Notes under the pieces: model-generated
What the model saw: only the letters and a program-made list of their open reading frames with translations
The model's database searches: none
Told to the model about the DNA's origin: nothing
Shown: in pieces, positions 23,245 to 51,136 of the stretch
Layout: every line of letters begins with the position of its first letter
How positions within the stretch are numbered: the first letter of the stretch is position 1
Origin: a phage
DNA: 64,000 nt
Strand: one strand, 5' to 3'
Sequence record: PX421306.1
Made by a program: the position numbers and the translations under genes

Positions 23245-24339
23245 ATGGCAATTGTTAAAGAAATAACTGCTGATTTAATTAAAAAGTCCGGTGAGAAAAT
23301 TTCAGCCGGACAGAGTACTAAATCAGAAGTAGTAACTAAAACATACACTGCCCAGTTTCCAACTGGGCGTGCTAGTGGTAATGACACTACAGGGGACTTC
23401 CAGGTAACAGATCTATATAAGAATGGATTATTATTTACTGCATACAATATGTCATCTAGGGATTCTGGAAGTCTTAGATCGATGAGATCTAACTACTCTT
23501 CTTCATCTTCGAGTATTTTAAGTACAGCTAGAAACACTATTAGTAGTACAGTATCAAAACTATCAAATGGATTAATATCAAACAATAATTCAGGAACAAT
23601 AAGTAAAGCTCCTGTGGCAAATATTCTTTTACCGAGATCTAAATCTGATGTTGATACATCATCACACAGATTTAATGATGTTCAAGAAAGTCTTATCAGC
23701 AGAGGCGGAGGTACTGCTACTGGCGTGTTAAGTAATATTGCTTCAACTGCAGTATTTGGGGCACTGGAAAGTATAACGCAAGGTATAATGGCTGATAATA
23801 ATGAACAGATTTATACGACAGCCAGAAGTATGTATGGCGGTGCTGAGAATAGAACTAAAGTGTTTACATGGGATTTGACGCCACGTTCAACAGAAGATTT
23901 AATGGCTATTATTAATATCTATCAATATTTTAACTATTTTTCTTATGGTGAAACGGGTAAATCTCAATATGCTGCTGAAATAAAGGGGTATTTAGATGAT
24001 TGGTATCGTTCTACGTTAATTGAACCTTTATCTCCGGAAGACGCAGCTAAAAATAAAACACTATTTGAGAAAATGACATCGAGTTTAACTAACGTTCTAG
24101 TAGTTTCAAACCCGACAATTTGGATGGTGAAAAACTTTGGCGCAACATCTAAGTTTGATGGAAAAACGGAAATATTTGGCCCATGCCAAATACAGAGCAT
24201 CAGATTTGATAAAACACCTAATGGTAACTTTAACGGATTAGCTATTGCTCCAAACCTCCCTAGTACATTTACTCTTGAGATTACTATGAGAGAAATTATC
24301 ACGTTAAACCGTGCTTCTTTATATGCGGGGACTTTTTAA
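23245..24339 (+). CDS. 48: Baseplate-tail tube initiator gp48 (364 aa)
   Basis: 364 aa. Confidence 0.92.
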   Translation: MAIVKEITADLIKKSGEKISAGQSTKSEVVTKTYTAQFPTGRASGNDTTGDFQVTDLYKNGLLFTAYNMSSRDSGSLRSMRSNYSSSSSSILSTARNTISSTVSKLSNGLISNNNSGTISKAPVANILLPRSKSDVDTSSHRFNDVQESLISRGGGTATGVLSNIASTAVFGALESITQGIMADNNEQIYTTARSMYGGAENRTKVFTWDLTPRSTEDLMAIINIYQYFNYFSYGETGKSQYAAEIKGYLDDWYRSTLIEPLSPEDAAKNKTLFEKMTSSLTNVLVVSNPTIWMVKNFGATSKFDGKTEIFGPCQIQSIRFDKTPNGNFNGLAIAPNLPSTFTLEITMREIITLNRASLYAGTF

Positions 24340-25304
24340 TGTATTCTTTAGAGGAATTTAATAATCAAGCAATAAACGCAGATTTCCAACGTAATAATAT
24401 GTTTAGCTGCGTTTTTGCGACAACTCCATCAACTAAAAGCTCTTCGTTGATAAGTTCAATTAGCAACTTTTCTTATAATAACTTGGGTCTAAATTCAGAT
24501 TGGTTAGGATTGACTCAAGGCGATATTAATCAGGGAATTACCACGCTAATTACTGCTGGCACACAAAAACTGATAAGAAAATCAGGGGTTAGTAAATATC
24601 TTATTGGTGCCATGAGTCAACGTACAGTTCAAAGTTTATTGGGCTCATTTACAGTTGGTACATATTTAATTGACTTCTTTAACATGGCATATAACTCATC
24701 TGGATTGATGATATATTCCGTAAAAATGCCAGAGAATAGATTATCCTATGAAACTGACTGGAACTATAATTCTCCTAATATTCGTATAACTGGGAGAGAA
24801 TTAGACCCTTTGGTTATTTCATTTAGGATGGATTCAGAAGCTTGTAACTATCGTGCAATGCAAGACTGGGTTAATGCTGTTCAAGACCCAGTAACTGGAC
24901 TGCGTGCTTTGCCGCAAGATGTCGAGGCAGATATTCAGGTTAATCTTCATGCTCGTAATGGATTACCTCATACTGCGGTGATGTTCACCGGATGCATTCC
25001 AGTGTCAGTGAGCGCTCCTGAGTTATCATATGATGGAGATAACCAAATAACTACATTTGATGTTACTTTTGCGTATAGAGTCATGCAGGCTGGAGCAGTT
25101 GATAGACAAGCTGCGCTTGAATGGCTTGAATCCGCTGCTATAAACGGTATTCAAAGCGTTCTCGGAAATAGCGGAGGCGTTACTGGACTATCTAATTCGC
25201 TTTCACGACTTAGTAGATTAGGAGGAACTGCTGGAAGCATTTCAAACATTAATACTATGACGGGAATTGTCAACTCGCAAAGTAAAATATTAGGAGCAAT
25301 ATAA
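24339..25304 (+). CDS. 54: Baseplate-tail tube initiator gp54 (321 aa)
   Basis: 321 aa; strong hairpin terminator follows. Confidence 0.92.
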   Translation: MYSLEEFNNQAINADFQRNNMFSCVFATTPSTKSSSLISSISNFSYNNLGLNSDWLGLTQGDINQGITTLITAGTQKLIRKSGVSKYLIGAMSQRTVQSLLGSFTVGTYLIDFFNMAYNSSGLMIYSVKMPENRLSYETDWNYNSPNIRITGRELDPLVISFRMDSEACNYRAMQDWVNAVQDPVTGLRALPQDVEADIQVNLHARNGLPHTAVMFTGCIPVSVSAPELSYDGDNQITTFDVTFAYRVMQAGAVDRQAALEWLESAAINGIQSVLGNSGGVTGLSNSLSRLSRLGGTAGSISNINTMTGIVNSQSKILGAI

Positions 25305-25307
25305 CAA

Positions 25308-25338
25308 TGGGGACCTTTCGGTCCCCATGTTTTTATTT
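25308..25338 (+). terminator. Intrinsic terminator after gene 54 (TGGGGACC-TTTC-GGTCCCCA + TGTTTTTATTT)
   Basis: 8-bp GC stem and U-run. Confidence 0.85.
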
Positions 25339-25623
25339 ACGGAATGAAATAAAAGCAGAAACTGAAGCAACTAAACTGTCTTCAATATAAACTTCAATTT
25401 TTACTGGAGCTTCTGATTCAAATTTACCTGTTACTACACCTTGGAAAATGCTTTCAGTCTGTTCTGGCTTTGAAAAATTTTCAGAAGGAAAAATTCCGAA
25501 CTTTTTATCTGTTCCAAAAATTTTGATAAATTCATCATAAACTGCTTCATTAAAAGCGTTATCAGCAGGAATAACGCCTTCAACTACAAGTTCTTGACCT
25601 AAAAAGCGTAAAGAAGATTTCAT
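25333..25623 (-). CDS. Hypothetical protein (96 aa) downstream of the alt genes
   Basis: ORF with SD GAGGAACA; driven by early-promoter cassette copy A. Confidence 0.5.
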   Translation of the reverse strand: MKSSLRFLGQELVVEGVIPADNAFNEAVYDEFIKIFGTDKKFGIFPSENFSKPEQTESIFQGVVTGKFESEAPVKIEVYIEDSLVASVSAFISFRK

Positions 25624-25631
25624 TTTGTGTT

Positions 25632-25686
25632 CCTCATGTTATGTCAGTAAGATTATTATAACACAATACGAGGGACTTGTAAACTA
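25632..25686 (-). promoter_or_regulatory. Early promoter/leader cassette copy A (stop codon + TTTACA-17-TATAAT + conserved leader + SD)
   Basis: Minus strand: TAG-TTTACAAGTCCCTCGTATTGTGTTATAATAATCTTACTGACATAACATGAGGAACACAAAATG. Confidence 0.65.
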
Positions 25687-27741
25687 CATCTTGAACTTTT
25701 TAGACATTCCATTGATGTTAACCAAAGAAGCCAAGATTTGAGAAACTTCGTTTTCCTCTTCTTTTGATTCTTCTACAAGGAATTGATTAAACCCAGCCAT
25801 TGGACGAACTTCACCAGTTTCCATCAGATGGTCGCCATCATATACCGATTCTTCTAATTGTTCAGAAGGAGGAACGATTGTGCCTTCGATTAGATACTTG
25901 TTATAAGCAGTTTCTTTCATCATGTACGTACTCACTTTATTAATCTTCAGCAAAATTCCACGTGGTAAAATAACTTCAGCTTCTGATGGAAATCCTGATA
26001 AATGTCCTGGAACGATAACTTTGATTCGCTCAGCTCCTTTAATTACCATACCCACGCTAGTTTCAGCATCTTCATTAGCATATGCAGAATGACTGCCCAT
26101 ATGCATTAAATCTTCAGCATCAACAGAACCTTCTCCTTCACCAGAAAATACTGCACCGGAATCATCTAGAGCCATATAGTTTTTACCATACTCACCGAAG
26201 ATATTTGGTTTAAGCGATGTGGATACGAAGTTCTTGAAATAAAACATTTTATTTTCAATATTATGACGTAAAGTTTTAAAGGTAACTTCTTGTCCACGAT
26301 AAAGTGTAGTTCCTGGAGGAAGAACTGATCCTTTGGCAAAGGCAGAATCCATTGTCTCGATGTGTTTAATAGCTCGTTCCATGTATTCTTCACGGGTAGA
26401 ATCTGGTTTACCCAAGAGGAACGAGTTCATTTCAACATATGAATCTGCACAATAATCTTCAATTACATCAGACTCAGCCTGAGTTAATCCTTTTGGGGGT
26501 ACTTCAGTACTTGCGTATTCATATGCCTGAGCAGCAGATTCATTAATCAATTTATAAATGCCATTCATGACAAATTGAATAATAGCTACTTTTTCGTCTG
26601 GCGTGGCTTTAGAACCTTTAACTAAATCATTGATAATTTTCTTAATAACATCAAAGCTATTAGAAATATTAATGTCAGCGAGATCGCTTAAAATTTTATC
26701 GGTTTTATAATCAAAGAATTCTTTATTCTTTAAATATTCTTGAGAACCTTGATATGTTATATCGCTCTGTAACTTGATAGATGGATCACGTAAACGTGCA
26801 TGAGCCAATGCAATATGATTTCGGAAGCTTTCTAGTTCATAATCGTTAGATTTAAAACGAGAAGCACTCCTCATACCACTGATAGCTCCTTTGCTGAAGT
26901 TTGAACCGACCTGAATAACGCCAGAGTTCATTGGTCCTTCTGCTTTATATACCGGAACTTTAGATTCAAACTCTTGATATTTCTTAGCAGCGAAGCTATC
27001 GCCCTGAAGTGAAGCATCGACAGTAGAGTATTGAGCTTGTGCTGCTAATCGACGACTAATTTTAGTTTTCTGAATAACAGCTTGATCCGTGCGCTTATCA
27101 TTTTCTAAGGCAATAGAAGCAGCGACAGCAACAGCTTTAGGAACAGCATTACCTGTTTTAACATCTACATAAACATCACCAACCTTTGATTCAACTTTTG
27201 TGAATAACTCAGTTGAAATAGGAGGTACACCTGGAATGTCTTCTAAATTAGCATTTTTACGGTAAACCATAATATATGCATATTTCTTATCATAGTCCCA
27301 GATTTCCTTTAAAAGAACATATCGACCTGCTCCTTTAGTACGTACTAAACGGTCAGCAATAACTTGCATTTGACGAGCAGCGCCATTTGTTTTACTTTTT
27401 AGTACGCGGAATAGGCATGCATCAATTTTATACTGTTTCATTGTTTGAAGAGCAGTATCAAAAACCGCATTAATGACACCAATTGGATTTCCACCTAAGT
27501 TTTTAAGTTTAACTAATGATAGCTTTTCATTGACACCTATCATTACGATATGCATCATTTTATCGCCTGGCTTAACGTTTTTATTCGTATCACCGCCAGA
27601 GGTGTATGTACAAAATCTAAATCCAGGAAGCACGCTTTCTTCACCCGCTTGAATAGCAAAAATTTGAGGTATTTTATGCTTAGGATTTAAGTTAACAACC
27701 GGCGCCGAAGCGCCGTCAAATAATTCTGTAATAAGTTCCAT
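25684..27741 (-). CDS. alt: Alt-family mono-ADP-ribosyltransferase (685 aa), R-S-E class motifs, probable capsid-packaged
   Basis: YRGQ...FVSTSL...EAEVILP (Arg / STS / ExE); N-terminal MELITE|LFD resembles a prohead-protease-cleaved targeting leader; which paralog is canonical alt is uncertain. Confidence 0.8.
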   Translation of the reverse strand: MELITELFDGASAPVVNLNPKHKIPQIFAIQAGEESVLPGFRFCTYTSGGDTNKNVKPGDKMMHIVMIGVNEKLSLVKLKNLGGNPIGVINAVFDTALQTMKQYKIDACLFRVLKSKTNGAARQMQVIADRLVRTKGAGRYVLLKEIWDYDKKYAYIMVYRKNANLEDIPGVPPISTELFTKVESKVGDVYVDVKTGNAVPKAVAVAASIALENDKRTDQAVIQKTKISRRLAAQAQYSTVDASLQGDSFAAKKYQEFESKVPVYKAEGPMNSGVIQVGSNFSKGAISGMRSASRFKSNDYELESFRNHIALAHARLRDPSIKLQSDITYQGSQEYLKNKEFFDYKTDKILSDLADINISNSFDVIKKIINDLVKGSKATPDEKVAIIQFVMNGIYKLINESAAQAYEYASTEVPPKGLTQAESDVIEDYCADSYVEMNSFLLGKPDSTREEYMERAIKHIETMDSAFAKGSVLPPGTTLYRGQEVTFKTLRHNIENKMFYFKNFVSTSLKPNIFGEYGKNYMALDDSGAVFSGEGEGSVDAEDLMHMGSHSAYANEDAETSVGMVIKGAERIKVIVPGHLSGFPSEAEVILPRGILLKINKVSTYMMKETAYNKYLIEGTIVPPSEQLEESVYDGDHLMETGEVRPMAGFNQFLVEESKEEENEVSQILASLVNINGMSKKFKM

Positions 27742-27744
27742 GAT

Positions 27745-29841
27745 TTATCCTTGAACGAACTTGTAAGGCATGTTTGTAATATCTATGCAAGACGCAATAA
27801 TTCCAAGAGATGATTCTACTTTCTGTTTAACGTTTGATGAAACAAATGATGCAAAGTCAACTCTGTCTTCTACTTCAATATCACCTGTCATTGCAACTAC
27901 TTCGCCGGTTTCCATTAGACGGTCACCGTCATAAATGACTGATTCGGTGAGTTCTTCCGTAGTCATAACTTCAGCTTGAATGAGTTTTGTGTTATTAGAT
28001 GTTGTTCCGTCATTATTAGAAGCATCAGTTATTTTATTAACTTTGACCATCAATCCGCGTGGTAGAATAACTTCAGCTTCTGTTGCTATTCCGAGACTTC
28101 CTGGATATACAACATTAACTTTATGAGCTCCATCAATTGCCCATCCTATTTGAACTTTAACGTATTCAGGATTTTCTTTATACGCTCTTATTTCGCTTGG
28201 ATTAATAGTTATTCCTTCTTCATTTTTATCAACTGTTAATTCATTGCGAACTTCTGGTTCTAAAAGACCAATACCAGCATGTGTAATTCCAAAACGTCCA
28301 AAAATGATAGGAGTTAAAGAAGTAGATACAAAATTTCTGAAATAGAACACTTTATTTTTAACTAGTGCTTCGTATATAGGAGCAGTCATACTTTGAGCAC
28401 GATAAACTGTAATGCCTTCTGGTATACGGTCACCGTTTTCAAAAGCTGAATCTAAGTTATTTATAGCAGATTCAATTTCTTTTTCACTCATTACATCATA
28501 TCGTTCTGGATTGTAACGACCCAAAAGAAGATTATTGATGTCAGTATATCCTGAACCACAATACTCTCTAATGCCGCGCTTTTGTGATGGAGTATATTTA
28601 GAACCATCACGGGCAATAGTAATATCAATCATTGGACCTGCACCAATTCCAGAAAAGCTATAAATCATTCTTTTAAGGAATTTAGTTTTTGCTGCGTTCC
28701 AGGAATTTTTAGTTATTTCTTCCCAGACTTCATCTGGCTGTCCTTTACGGGTTTTATTATGTTTATCAAGCCAATTATCTTTATATTCTTCAAAGAATTG
28801 ATTAACAGCTGCTGCGTATTTCTCTAAACATTTTATTGAAGTGGTTGGTTCATTTTTAATCGCATTAAGAATTACATCTTTAATTTTTTCAGAAACTTCA
28901 TTAACCTCACTTTTTGAAAAGAATTTATAGTCATAGTGAAGTTCATCTGCGGTTCCTTCGGCAATGATTTTTGCTGCCTTAGTTTTAGAAGCTAATGAAT
29001 TAATTCCAAGCTTCATTTCTTCTGCTTCGGGAATTAAAGGAGCTGTAGCAGGTTTATTGAAATTAGCTGCGGTAGATTCATATTTCTGGAATAATTCACT
29101 TTCAAATCTAGAAGATTCCAATGACTGACTTTGCGCAATTGCTCTACGGGAAATTTTAACTTTAACGATTACAGCTTGGTCAGAACGTTTATCGTTTTCT
29201 TGCGCAATAGATGCCGCAATTGCCTCATTTTTAGTTACTTGAGCTCCAGTATCTTTATTGATATAAACATCGCCGACTTTCGATTCAACTTTAGTAAAGA
29301 GCTCGGTACTAATTTCCGGAACTCCTGGAATGTCTTCTAGTGATACATTTTTGCGATGTATAAGAATATATGCATACTTTTTATCGTAATCCCAGAGTTC
29401 CTTAAGAAGGACGTATCTGCCACCTGAACGACTGCGGATAAGTCTATCAGCAATAACTTGAATTTGTCGAGCTTGACCAGCAGTTTTAGACTTAAGAATA
29501 CGAAGCATACAGGCATCAATTTTATACTGACGCATCGTTTGCATCGCAACAGTAAAAACTGAATTGATGTAATTAATTGGGCTTGGACCGAGACCTTTCA
29601 ATTTAGCAATTGAACCTTTAGCAGTTAATGTAAAAGGAACAATGTGCATCATTTTATCGCCCATCTTTAGATCACGGTTAGTATCACCTCCAGATGTATA
29701 GGTACATAAACGAAAGCCTGGTTGTTCAATTGCGTCATCAACATGAACTGAAAAAATTTGTGGTATTTTCTTCTTTGGATTTAAGTTTGTAATCGGAAGA
29801 GTAGTATCTTCGTCAAATAATTCTGTAATGAGTTCCATCAT
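27745..29841 (-). CDS. Alt-family mono-ADP-ribosyltransferase paralog (698 aa)
   Basis: Same N-terminal leader MELITELFD, YRAQ...FVSTSL...EAEVILP; tandem to the 685-aa paralog. Confidence 0.8.
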   Translation of the reverse strand: MMELITELFDEDTTLPITNLNPKKKIPQIFSVHVDDAIEQPGFRLCTYTSGGDTNRDLKMGDKMMHIVPFTLTAKGSIAKLKGLGPSPINYINSVFTVAMQTMRQYKIDACMLRILKSKTAGQARQIQVIADRLIRSRSGGRYVLLKELWDYDKKYAYILIHRKNVSLEDIPGVPEISTELFTKVESKVGDVYINKDTGAQVTKNEAIAASIAQENDKRSDQAVIVKVKISRRAIAQSQSLESSRFESELFQKYESTAANFNKPATAPLIPEAEEMKLGINSLASKTKAAKIIAEGTADELHYDYKFFSKSEVNEVSEKIKDVILNAIKNEPTTSIKCLEKYAAAVNQFFEEYKDNWLDKHNKTRKGQPDEVWEEITKNSWNAAKTKFLKRMIYSFSGIGAGPMIDITIARDGSKYTPSQKRGIREYCGSGYTDINNLLLGRYNPERYDVMSEKEIESAINNLDSAFENGDRIPEGITVYRAQSMTAPIYEALVKNKVFYFRNFVSTSLTPIIFGRFGITHAGIGLLEPEVRNELTVDKNEEGITINPSEIRAYKENPEYVKVQIGWAIDGAHKVNVVYPGSLGIATEAEVILPRGLMVKVNKITDASNNDGTTSNNTKLIQAEVMTTEELTESVIYDGDRLMETGEVVAMTGDIEVEDRVDFASFVSSNVKQKVESSLGIIASCIDITNMPYKFVQG

Positions 29842-29874
29842 ATCCTCTCTAGTGTTTATTCTATTTATAAAATT

Positions 29875-37162: not shown

Positions 37163-37395
37163 AGTACGCCATACACCCTTTGTGCTTCAACTAATCCATC
37201 AAAATCCAATTTGAGATGTGTTATTTGGTCACCATCACCTGGATTCACAATTACTAATACTGAACGAGGAGTTTCGGTAATAACACGAACCGATGTTTCA
37301 GGAAATCGTTCAGAAACCTTATTTACCAATTCCTGAGCAAATAGTTTAACTTTTTCTTGGAATTCTTTAGTAGTAATTGGTTTTTCACTTAGCAT
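37159..37395 (-). CDS. cd.2: Hypothetical protein (cd.2-like)
   Basis: 78-aa ORF. Confidence 0.5.
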   Translation of the reverse strand: MLSEKPITTKEFQEKVKLFAQELVNKVSERFPETSVRVITETPRSVLVIVNPGDGDQITHLKLDFDGLVEAQRVYGVL

Positions 37396-37916
37396 GTTGA
37401 TCCCAGCTCCTTACTTTCAACGTTTTTAACTAATTTGACAGAAACTAATTCGGCATCTTGGGTAATCATTACCGGGCCTTCTTCATACTCTTCAAGATAT
37501 TCTAGAGCTTTCTTTTTAGCTTCTTCCTTCGTATCAGTTTGAGCATAGATATAAAACATACAACCAGTAATACCTACTACTTTCCACTTAATTTCTTTAT
37601 CAGTTTTAATTTCAAATTTACTTGTAGAATCATCTTTTTGAACTTCTTCGAAAAAAGAATATTCTAACATATAAGCAATTGAAAATAACGGGCTAACTTT
37701 ATAGGATTCGCCCATTACATCAACAGCTTTATACCAGCAATCATCAATTTCACGTTTAATGCTAATAACATTTTTCGCAGGATCTATTTTTACTTTAAAT
37801 GAATTTTCCCCAATAAACTGGGCAATTCGTTTATTAGCCCCGCAGGTTTCATTAAAAATATCTTTATACCCAGCTTTAAAGCGATAAACCTTATCTTCTT
37901 CAAACCATTCGCTCAT
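37389..37916 (-). CDS. cd.3: Hypothetical protein (cd.3-like)
   Basis: 175-aa ORF. Confidence 0.5.
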   Translation of the reverse strand: MSEWFEEDKVYRFKAGYKDIFNETCGANKRIAQFIGENSFKVKIDPAKNVISIKREIDDCWYKAVDVMGESYKVSPLFSIAYMLEYSFFEEVQKDDSTSKFEIKTDKEIKWKVVGITGCMFYIYAQTDTKEEAKKKALEYLEEYEEGPVMITQDAELVSVKLVKNVESKELGSTC

Positions 37917-37978
37917 TTCAATTTCCTCATTTGTTTTGGTAGAGCTATAATATCACAACTCTACCTTAAAGTAAACTA

Positions 37979-40377: not shown

Positions 40378-40727
40378 TTAGAAAGGTCCTGGATGTCTTC
40401 TGCGAACTTGTTGAAGGAGTTGTTGATTTGTTTTTCAACCAATCCTGGCTTATGAGCCACCACATCCGCCTTCTTTGCGTCTTTGCGCAGTTTTTCATTT
40501 TCACGCTCAATAGCAGCAATTGCCTCACGATTTTTATTATTCATCGCATCAATATAATTATACTGAATTCGCAAATTATCTAATGCTAAAGCGTTTTCAT
40601 TGGCCGTTTTTGTAATTTCTACAACAGACGTTTCTAATCTTTCAATTTTACTTTTTAAAATTAAAGAAGTTCCGCCCAATGCAATTACAATTAATAGCAA
40701 GCCTGCTGTCGTATTATTTAATTGCAT
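40374..40727 (-). CDS. pseT.3: Inner-membrane spanin (i-spanin; N-terminal TM plus coiled coil)
   Basis: N-terminal hydrophobic helix GLLLIVIALGG and coiled-coil periplasmic domain; 117 aa. Confidence 0.75.
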   Translation of the reverse strand: MQLNNTTAGLLLIVIALGGTSLILKSKIERLETSVVEITKTANENALALDNLRIQYNYIDAMNNKNREAIAAIERENEKLRKDAKKADVVAHKPGLVEKQINNSFNKFAEDIQDLSK

Positions 40728-41221
40728 AAAGTTTTAATAACCTCTATAATATCGTCTTGAGAAAGACCGTTAATTAAAATATGATGTTCAGCAGGAGATT
40801 TAGAAATTTTAAAGCATGCCTCAACATCTTCTGCCATATCTGATGCGCTACGATTTGGATTACTAATTCCAAGACGATGTTTTCCCGTTAAAGGATTAAC
40901 GATGATATAACATTTACAGTTGTTAATATGAACATTAGGTTGAGTCTGATTAATGAACACATCACAATCATATTTCGCAAGCTGATTTTCTAAAAAGACT
41001 TTCATCTCCTCAACTGCGTCAGGAAGCATATCACGGGCTTGCTCAAGACGACGATTTCGATATTCTTTAATGGTCGTTTTCCGCTTGACTTGCTTAGCTA
41101 AATCTTTCTTAAGATCGGTGATATATCCAACTCGACGATTTCCTTTAAATACAGAAATCCCATCTGTAGTATCACCGTATGCTTCAACGACCATCTCAGT
41201 AGTAATAAGCTGCAAATCCAT
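40718..41221 (-). CDS. alc: Alc, host transcription unfolding/termination protein (167 aa)
   Basis: 167 aa at T4 alc position. Confidence 0.8.
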   Translation of the reverse strand: MDLQLITTEMVVEAYGDTTDGISVFKGNRRVGYITDLKKDLAKQVKRKTTIKEYRNRRLEQARDMLPDAVEEMKVFLENQLAKYDCDVFINQTQPNVHINNCKCYIIVNPLTGKHRLGISNPNRSASDMAEDVEACFKISKSPAEHHILINGLSQDDIIEVIKTLCN

Positions 41222-41229
41222 CATAAAGT

Positions 41230-41285
41230 CCTCATGTTATGTCAGTAAGACTACTGTAACACATCACGAGGGACTTGTAAACAGC

Positions 41286-41288
<3 letters not shown>
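41230..41288 (-). promoter_or_regulatory. Early promoter/leader cassette copy B (near-identical to copy A) upstream of alc
   Basis: Minus strand: TAA-GCTGTTTACAAGTCCCTCGTGATGTGTTACAGTAGTCTTACTGACATAACATGAGGAC; about 90% identical to copy A over 53 nt. Confidence 0.65.
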
Positions 41289-42873
<1,585 letters not shown>

Positions 42874-50390: not shown

Positions 50391-50756
50391 CTACTTTTTG
50401 AAAGTTTTTCGCAAAAGTTCAATGATTTCATCTACATTGTTTTCGTCAACAATGCAGTGAATTTTTGTTACGCCAGAAACCTTGTCTTCTATTTCATCTT
50501 CTTCAGAAGTCGGTTCTTTATACTCACGAAAACAATGAAATTCGTCTTCGCAAACGTTAAAGTAAAAATGCTTTCCATTTGCACATTCAATGTGTTTTAT
50601 TACTCTAAATCCATCAGCAAAGAAAGCTTCTTTAACTTCAAACCATCCGCCATTTTCTTGAATAATTTTAACTATTGATGAATTAGAACGTGGGCGATAA
50701 TTAATAAATGTATCAATAAGTCTTGGAACAAGTTCATACTTTTTGCCAATATACAT
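50391..50756 (-). CDS. Hypothetical protein (121 aa)
   Basis: SD GAGGAAA. Confidence 0.5.
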   Translation of the reverse strand: MYIGKKYELVPRLIDTFINYRPRSNSSIVKIIQENGGWFEVKEAFFADGFRVIKHIECANGKHFYFNVCEDEFHCFREYKEPTSEEDEIEDKVSGVTKIHCIVDENNVDEIIELLRKTFKK

Positions 50757-51028: not shown

Positions 51029-51136
51029 GTTATTTTCCTCTTTAATCATCATCAGCAGTATTGCCGATAGTTGTATAGTACCATAAAGCTTTATGCTTGT
51101 AAACAGTTTTGTGAAAAAATTTTTGAAATAAAAAAA

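Follow-up and report, generated by a model that had tools for sequence, protein, structure and literature searches.

Several genes of bacteriophage T4, namely e, soc, 49 and I-TevI, are controlled by hairpins that mask translation and have a promoter nested within them (Uzan & Miller 2010, PMC3014915). In the long read-through RNA of these genes the Shine-Dalgarno (SD) sequence, with or without the AUG, is paired, and the promoter lies within the region coding for the 5' strand of the stem, its own transcripts being devoid of that strand and translatable. The early promoters of T4 belong to the sigma-70 class with UP, -35, TGn and -10 elements (Hinton 2010, PMC2988021). A third described element is the promoter-early stem-loop (PeSL), in which an AT-rich region and then a terminator stem-loop immediately precede the promoter, with its -35 and -10 hexamers, followed by an SD sequence and an ATG (PMC2839356, PMC4122927). 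These elements are located in hyperplastic regions, in the vicinity of indels, and are able to form mini-circles (Arbiol et al. 2010, PMC2839356; Comeau et al. 2014, PMC4122927). The present analysis concerns a 54-nt unit with an early promoter, a leader and a ribosome binding site (RBS), which is found twice, upstream of alt.-3 and of alc, in a 64,000-nt stretch of phage DNA (sequence record PX421306.1; hereafter the window). The fold-back of this unit is predicted to be an early-promoter version of the known T4 device, while the promoters themselves appear to be ordinary T4 features. The window derives from a Tequatrovirus, a T4-like phage, and its positions 24000-27000 are 97.8% identical to EP01, CrRp10, Shfl2 and PP01.

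The unit extends on the minus strand from the G preceding the -35 hexamer to the final A of the SD sequence GAGGA, and the coordinates of its two direct copies, A and B, are collected in Table 1. The genes flanking both cassettes all lie on the minus strand, and the counterpart junctions in T4 are alt.-2/alt.-3 and rnlA/alc. The initial annotation had described an early-promoter and leader element directly after the alt stop codon, reading TAG-TTTACA-17 nt-TATAAT, together with a second copy of about 90% identity. Both are recovered here, the first at minus 25684..25631 and the second with 49 of the 54 positions identical; the ranges given at the time (25632-25686 and 41230-41288) are off by 1-6 nt and designate the same object. 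Copies A and B differ at unit positions 18, 19, 27, 29 and 32, and their identity ends abruptly, on the 5' side at the G before the -35 hexamer and on the 3' side at the last A of GAGGA, beyond which the flanks are unrelated.

The duplicated promoter-leader-RBS unit is real, and the likeness between its copies extends well past a promoter consensus. The possibility of an ordinary consensus with no extended leader identity, raised along with the initial annotation, does not agree with the T4 genome, where the A/B pair is identical at 53 of 54 positions and the other early-promoter pairs (301 pairs) have a median of 26/54 and a 95th percentile of 35/54. Similarly, the window copies are 88% identical over 56 nt, compared with a median of 51% and a maximum of 62% for the other early-promoter pairs of the window. 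None of 100 dinucleotide-preserving shuffles contains the 21-nt leader, which the window holds twice, and only two copies of the cassette are present in the whole window; the assembled T4 genome, searched with up to 16 mismatches allowed, also returned only these two.

Among related T-even genomes, blastn located the element in 508 phage records and 1007 places, that is, two per genome, T4, T2, RB14 and PST included, and both junctions and the two-copy state are kept in approximately 500 Tequatrovirus genomes. The consensus of the A copies equals that of the B copies over all 54 nt, the pair in the window being the most diverged among those compared. The nucleotide diversity of the element is 0.047 for A and 0.024 for B, against 0.093 and 0.081 at the third codon positions of the adjacent genes. 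The element thus evolves at 30-50% of the third-codon-position rate, which suggests that the cassette is under moderate constraint. No match overlapping 25629-25684 was found in Rfam at E <= 1, and a search for related loci with Alc and Alt.-3 returned close relatives only. A literature search, which was not exhaustive and leaves a prior description possible, found no account of the repeat or of a structure at the alc or alt.-3 promoters.

The initial annotation did not include the internal hairpin, in which the promoter spacer pairs with the SD. The spacer AAGUCCCUCGUGUUGUGUUA is complementary to its own leader and SD, UAACAUAACAUGAGGACUU, and the unit folds in silico as an RNA hairpin of 19-22 bp that joins positions 7-31 (spacer and -10) to positions 36-57 (leader and SD). 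The predicted free energy is -15.2 kcal/mol for window copy A (z = -3.45) and -21.4 kcal/mol for window copy B (z = -4.15), with none of 200 shuffles being as low in either case, and it reaches -23.0 and -24.4 kcal/mol for the alt.-3 and alc copies of T4, respectively. The stem contains G.U pairs, and the T4 sense RNA is 4.6-9 kcal/mol more stable than the antisense; such a preference for the sense strand speaks for a role of the stem in the mRNA and not in the DNA.

The consequence for the ribosome site was estimated as its opening energy, the free energy needed to open the region from SD-2 to AUG+12. Throughout the A/B cassettes of the window, T4 and their relatives, this energy amounts to 14-22 kcal/mol in read-through RNA and to 3-6 kcal/mol in RNA that begins at the predicted +1 (14.3 vs 4.7 kcal/mol for copy A and 21.1 vs 5.6 kcal/mol for copy B), and the SD has a calculated probability of 0.03-0.19 of being unpaired in the read-through RNA. 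Since the 5' arm is the promoter spacer, located upstream of any start past the -10, promoter-initiated transcripts lack it. By the same measure gene e of T4, used as a control because its switch is established by experiment, gives 15.7 vs 1.5 kcal/mol, and its difference of 14.2 kcal/mol is similar to the 10-18 kcal/mol predicted for the two cassettes. A difference of only 2.8-5.3 kcal/mol is obtained for other early promoters in the window, and among 86 distinct T4-like early promoters from IMG/VR that have the same layout, with a median difference of 2.2 kcal/mol, the A/B family takes first place.

With regard to the promoters, copy A (TTTACA-17-TGT-TATAAT, 11/12) and copy B (TTTACA-17-TGT-TACAGT, 9/12) fit the T4 early class, with which they share the -35 GTTTAC(A), the 17-nt spacer, the TGn, a TAyAAT-like -10 and a position directly 5' of genes that are early in T4; copy B also has the A/T-rich stretch upstream. 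They depart from the other T4 early promoters in being 91-100% identical through the spacer, the discriminator and the whole leader, and in that the preceding gene has its stop codon overlapping or abutting the -35 hexamer, which makes the UP region coding. A 'predicted early promoter' is annotated at both sites in the fPS-65 record, and no late-promoter motif TATAAATA is present inside the unit, the nested promoter being of the early, sigma-70 type. A public dataset of T4 differential RNA sequencing (dRNA-seq) is available under GSE255091.

Time-resolved transcriptomics and proteomics place alt.-3 and alc among the genes with early RNA and early protein, a class that comes from T4 and not from the window phage (PMC9697503). 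The same data describe alt as late (RNA t7, protein t8) and rnlA as having early RNA and late protein (PMC9697503). The window contains a late promoter, TATAAATA, at 29862-29869 on the minus strand, about 20 nt upstream of the start codon of the first alt, in keeping with late expression of alt, the product of which is packaged into the virion. A terminator scan detected no terminator between alt and alt.-3, and a bidirectional one, a perfect 9-bp GC-rich stem (ATGGGGACC..GGTCCCCAT), is found after alt.-3, at 25307-25328, between the convergent alt.-3 and 54. For rnlA, the table of Hinton gives the middle promoters PnrdA and PnrdB upstream of the gene, and for alc and alt.-3 it gives none.

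The best-supported mechanism, to which we assign a probability of roughly 0.6, is a self-masking early cassette through which alt.-3 and alc would be translated only from RNA of their own early promoters. According to this model, each gene would be driven by a T4 early promoter of the sigma-70 type that is joined to a short 5' leader and an RBS. RNA arriving from upstream would hold both arms and form the 19-22 bp hairpin, burying the SD, whereas RNA from the internal promoter would start past the -10, without the 5' arm, and keep the ribosome site open. The read-through would come from the alt late promoter in the case of alt.-3 and from PnrdA and PnrdB, via denA and rnlA, in the case of alc. 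The cassette would therefore behave as a temporal insulator, the downstream gene being translated while its own early promoter fires and remaining silent on later read-through. Such a scheme would follow the principle of lysozyme (e), soc, 49 and I-TevI, with its order in time inverted: there, the nested promoter is late and the silent RNA early, whereas in A and B the nested promoter is early and the silent RNA would be middle or late read-through. Translational coupling, with an upstream ribosome opening the stem, was rejected as the main mode, as reasoning from published footprint sizes suggests that a ribosome with the stop codon in its A site would reach only about position 7-11, short of the CCUC-GAGG core. 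The leaders contain GAGGA and not GGAG, and a role as RegB target was discarded as well.

If this mechanism is correct, it would explain how T4-type phages keep early proteins early, given that alc and alt.-3 lie directly downstream of rnlA and alt with no terminator in either pair, and that Alt and RnlA are late as proteins. Of the two downstream products, Alc is a terminator of host transcription, and mutant forms of Alt.-3 escape the CmdTAC defence. The lysozyme-type RNA switch would be extended from late to early promoters, and the otherwise unconserved spacers of a third of the T4 early promoters would acquire a functional reason. Promoter, leader and insulation could be copied as one 54-nt module, an insert placed behind such a cassette in phage engineering would be expressed early only, and RNA-seq coverage alone would mispredict the expression of masked genes.

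Within the A/B family, the evidence argues only weakly for selected masking, and the recurrence of the arrangement in unrelated cassettes is the stronger argument. Pairing of the spacer with the SD is predicted for 8 of the 27 early-promoter cassettes of T4: alc, alt.-3, ndd.4, e.8, denV, regB, nrdC.8 and motB.2. As in A and B, the stem of the other six joins the 13 nt after the -35 hexamer to the SD region and leaves the -10 and the +1 apical. These six are unrelated in sequence to A and B, and only ndd.4 and nrdC.8 are similar to each other (46/54). Their stems are gene-specific and 10-15 bp long (for instance UCUCCUGUAG/CUACAGGAGA in denV and UUCCUCUUGACUG/CAGUUAAGAGGA in regB), with opening-energy differences of 8-14 kcal/mol; A and B have the longest stem among the masked cassettes and are the only near-perfect duplicate. 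When the spacers of the eight were exchanged, 0-2 of 26 foreign spacers masked equally, the sole exception for A and B being each other's spacer, which supports a co-adaptation of spacer and SD. Furthermore, anti-SD tetramers are present in 7 of the 27 T4 spacers, compared with 4.9% of random 13-mers (p = 3e-4). The genes downstream of masked cassettes that are detected by proteomics all have early RNA and early protein, and denV, like alc and alt.-3, follows a gene with a late-accumulating protein (ipII). A broader proposal, that promoter-of-origin-dependent translation is a general and portable rule of T4 early genes (approximately 30%, 8/27), with the alt.-3/alc cassette as a recently copied insulating module, is put forward tentatively, as we consider it somewhat more likely to fail than to hold.

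A number of observations weigh against a self-masking cassette, and some of them would be expected if the repeat were a recent neutral duplication or conversion of one promoter, whose fold-back would be a chance property without function. The hairpin is shared by descent and A and B therefore count as a single evolutionary observation. Among 16 distinct A/B variants from IMG/VR, metagenomes and GenBank no pair has changed on both sides, covariation being uninformative because the genus is too shallow. Six types of substitution preserve pairing (C11U, C15U, G16A, C42U, G40A and A46G) and four disrupt it, a bias that is not significant (p = 0.14-0.27), as 58% of the possible transitions would preserve pairing. 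Stem-weakening changes are tolerated in the window, where G18A and G29A weaken the stem of copy A, G29A at the same time improving the -10. The alt.-3 promoters of Gaprivervirus, Mosigvirus and other genera keep the geometry and have short, different stems that do not reach the SD, and opening-energy differences are 0.3-2.2 kcal/mol for those of Gaprivervirus, Mosigvirus and several unassigned IMG/VR contigs; the orthologous promoters in two contigs give 5.2 and 8.1 kcal/mol. In these genera the alc promoters are unrelated to the alt.-3 promoters, and in Mosigvirus and Gaprivervirus the two do not form a pair. Since the alt.-3 stems of other genera miss the SD and their alc promoters are unrelated, the duplication and the SD masking seem to be specific to Tequatrovirus, the masking being missing in the orthologous promoters of most other genera. 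Several of the six other masked T4 cassettes follow an early gene (nrdC.8 after nrdC.9), so the early-versus-late logic is not universal, and the fold energies used throughout leave out translating ribosomes and co-transcriptional folding. A neutral duplication is nonetheless judged quite improbable, since the hairpin energy is unmatched by 200 of 200 shuffles, six unrelated T4 cassettes converge on spacer-SD pairing, the masking is as large as in the proven case of gene e, the element is less diverse than synonymous sites, and the A and B consensus sequences are identical even though both copies predate the radiation of the genus. Equally, an inverted repeat that acts as DNA, either as a palindromic operator bound by a regulator of both promoters, from the phage or the host, or as a cruciform, could be suspected from a dyad centred on the -10 region of two co-regulated early promoters, the more so as the shut-off of early promoters is described as incompletely understood. 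This is very improbable: the stem depends on G.U pairs and in T4 is less stable on the opposite strand by the amount given above, which is indicative of sense-strand RNA, the other six cassettes have arms that, besides being long and imperfect, are gene-specific, unlike a shared operator, and no candidate binding protein was identified.

It appears unlikely, though not incompatible with SD masking, that the hairpin serves the upstream gene, alt or rnlA, as a 3' stabiliser, a weak terminator or pause, or an RNase III-type site, with the SD pairing being incidental. A stem of 22 bp is about the length of an RNase III substrate, PeSL stem-loops terminate in RB49, and some public records carry a 'terminator' feature under the match. 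Moreover, unusually stable hairpins surround the -10 in 12-13 of the 27 T4 early promoters, several of these hairpins ending before the SD, and the T4 pair 57990/20612 (39/54) shows a compensatory change from U-A to C-G in such a stem (AAGATTA..TAATCTT vs AAGACTA..TAGTCTT). An intrinsic terminator at the cassette was nevertheless rejected, as copy A has no U-tract after the stem (GGAACACAAAAUG) and neither copy is reported by the terminator scan; the complementarity of the eight T4 cassettes is centred on the SD and runs into gene-specific flanks, and foreign spacers fail to reproduce it. The remaining alternative, which follows the initial annotation, is that A and B are mobile cassettes of the PeSL type, present-day recombination hot spots that shuffle the 15.6-kb module between them. 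The two form a direct repeat of 54 nt and match at 49-54/54 positions, patches of <50 bp are reported to suffice for recombination in T4, and pairs of PeSLs form mini-circles in RB49/phi1. The early cassettes of T4 have a mosaic make-up with sharp break points, in Mosigvirus a chimeric relative of the cassette stands before an unrelated open reading frame (ORF), and the number of alt paralogs beside copy A varies (one in PST, one plus remnants in T4, two in the window). Such exchange is distinctly improbable, however, given that the upstream terminator stem-loop that defines a PeSL is absent, that both junctions and the two-copy state are fixed in the approximately 500 genomes, and that A and B of one genome carry different private substitutions; in PST, for instance, A has C11U/C15U/G16A and B equals the consensus. 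No concerted evolution between A and B was seen within genomes when copies were compared across Tequatrovirus. The interval between the copies, described in the initial annotation as ~15.5 kb of accessory early genes, is not accessory throughout, since it includes the essential genes 30 (DNA ligase) and 31, and a deletion product would be inviable. The variation in alt copy number is explained by recombination among the alt paralogs themselves.

The relation to PeSLs is thus partial. The name used in the initial annotation, 'PeSS', does not correspond to the published element, which is the PeSL, and the identification applies as far as the early promoter, SD and start codon are concerned. Like PeSLs, A and B are compact, genome-repeated units with a strong early promoter, an SD and a start codon, for which a spread by recombination within the unit is proposed, and they fit the TTTACW-N17-TAYWAT consensus quoted for the PST/T4 PeSLs. 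In contrast, their stem-loop spans the promoter, from spacer to SD (unit positions 7-57), with no consistent U-tract, and an upstream PeSL stem-loop in non-coding DNA is impossible, as the stop codon of the preceding gene runs into the -35 region in A and is only 3 nt away in B. Their flanking genes appear to be conserved rather than hyperplastic; beside copy A only the number of alt paralogs varies, and between genera the alc cassette is not the same.

That a cassette was once copied or replaced, as has been proposed for PeSLs, is plausible, and an ancient event in which one cassette was copied over the other, in the ancestor of Tequatrovirus, is likely. The end points of the A/B identity coincide with the GTTTACAAG and ATGAGGA blocks of many early cassettes, which suggests that these blocks mark the site of exchange. 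The ACATGAGGA leader is shared with orthologues of alt.-3 and not with those of alc, weakly hinting at a copy direction from alt.-3 to alc. Mosaic families with sharp break points are also formed by other early cassettes of T4. These include the ndd.4/nrdC.8 pair mentioned above (T4 166807/53943); motA/e.8 (163673/70696, 44/54), identical from -14 to +24 and with unrelated spacers; and frd.3/nrdC.10 (146875/55384, 42/54), with the first 39 nt identical and unrelated leaders thereafter. The chimeric relative in Mosigvirus LF82-41 (L016:1176-1246, denB-ndd region; TATAGTAGTCTTACTGA..ACATGAGGAACACAAAATG) stands before an unrelated 66-aa ORF and has the -10, leader, SD and pre-ATG bases of Tequatrovirus copy A with a different spacer, up to four related places being found per genome.

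Table 1. Positions of the two cassettes, their parts and the adjacent genes in the window, with the T4 equivalents (NC_000866.4) where indicated.
Feature	Position	Strand	Remarks
Cassette copy A	25684..25631	minus	GTTTACAAGTCCCTCGTATTGTGTTATAATAATCTTACTGACATAACATGAGGA; between alt-paralog stop and alt.-3
Second alt paralog, 685 aa	ORF 25684..27741	minus	PHROG 802 Alt-like ADP-ribosyltransferase, E 5e-255
TAG stop of second alt paralog	25684..25686	minus	its G is base 1 of copy A
Copy A -35 hexamer TTTACA	25678..25683	minus	
Copy A extended -10, TGT + TATAAT	25655..25663, hexamer 25655-25660	minus	11/12 match, TG present
Copy A predicted transcription start (A), 7 nt past -10	25648	minus	from geometry and the CTTAC/TATC context common to T4-like early promoters
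Copy A predicted RNA hairpin	25629..25676	minus	5' arm promoter spacer, apex -10 region, 3' arm leader and SD
Copy A SD GAGGA	25631..25635	minus	predicted to pair with spacer CCUC in read-through RNA
alt.-3, 96 aa	ORF 25333..25623, start codon ATG 25621..25623	minus	PHROG 1739
Cassette copy B	41282..41229	minus	between rnlA stop and alc; 49/54 identical (90.7%) to copy A
rnlA (gene 63)	41286..42446	minus	TIGR02308 T4 RnlA, E 9e-189
rnlA TAA stop	41286..41288	minus	3 nt upstream of copy B
Copy B -35 hexamer TTTACA	41276..41281	minus	
Copy B extended -10, TGT + TACAGT	41253..41261	minus	weaker than that of copy A; T4 has TATAGT
Copy B predicted transcription start (A)	41246	minus	from geometry, as for copy A
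Copy B predicted RNA hairpin, 21 bp	41226..41276	minus	two 1-nt bulges and a 2-nt interior loop; SD in 3' arm
Copy B SD GAGGA	41229..41233	minus	
alc	40718..41224	minus	PHROG 1253 inhibitor of host transcription
alc start region ATGATG	41219..41224	minus	second ATG (41219-41221) is the T4-annotated start, with better SD spacing
T4 equivalents of predicted starts 25648 / 41246	~123057 / 136300 (T4)	minus	
T4 cassettes ndd.4, e.8, denV, regB, nrdC.8, motB.2	166807, 70696, 65413, 62797, 53943, 8218 (T4)	minus	

The leader mini-ORF of 4-5 codons pointed out in the initial annotation is present as described (ATGAGGAACACAAAATGA in A and ATGAGGACTTTATGA in B) and is treated here as a by-product of the ATGAGGA SD context. 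This context is found at four gene starts of the window (50770, 41235, 37930 and 25637, minus strand), each time yielding an ORF of 4-5 codons whose stop overlaps the start codon of the gene (ATGA or TAATG), and the layout is widespread, occurring in dozens of T4-like IMG/VR contigs. A functional upstream ORF was rejected given that its AUG has no SD and lies about 12 nt from the predicted 5' end, ATGAGGA being merely a common sequence.

Hairpins that enclose the -10 hexamer and end before the SD are also found at other early promoters of the window, at 50391, 37976 and 34096 on the minus strand (position of the G of GTTTAC). Their energy of -16 kcal/mol places them in the top 1% of 2000 control segments, and the 12-13 T4 cassettes of this kind lie within the lowest 5% of control fold energies. 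These hairpins may be PeSL stem-loops in another position. Right after the promoter hairpin at 37976 lies an ORF of 175 aa (37389-37916, minus) that is present in PST (ORF213) and absent from T4, where the counterpart of the promoter precedes cd.2; this is an indel beside an early cassette, as described for PeSLs. A different arrangement is found at 51103 (minus) in the window and at 146875 and 55384 in T4, where the spacer of the early promoter contains a perfect palindrome, ATAAAGCTTTAT.

The window holds two full-length alt paralogs in tandem on the minus strand, at 25684-27741 (685 aa) and 27745-29841 (698 aa), while T4 has one alt with the remnants alt.-1 and alt.-2 and PST has one alt only; the cassette invariably abuts the stop codon of the last alt. 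The mechanically assigned start of the rnlA ORF (GTG 42446, 386 aa) is probably too far upstream (42408-42446, minus), as alignment to the RnlA family model begins at residue 14, in agreement with the 374-aa protein of T4. Similarly, the annotated alc start of Mosigvirus LF82-41 (L163, 41060-41145, minus), at 41140 and overlapping the rnlA stop, is probably placed too far upstream, an early promoter, GTTTACAA-N16-TACTAT, with an SD and ATGAATATGCAATTG (MNMQLITNDMVV), being located inside the annotated 5' end of the gene.

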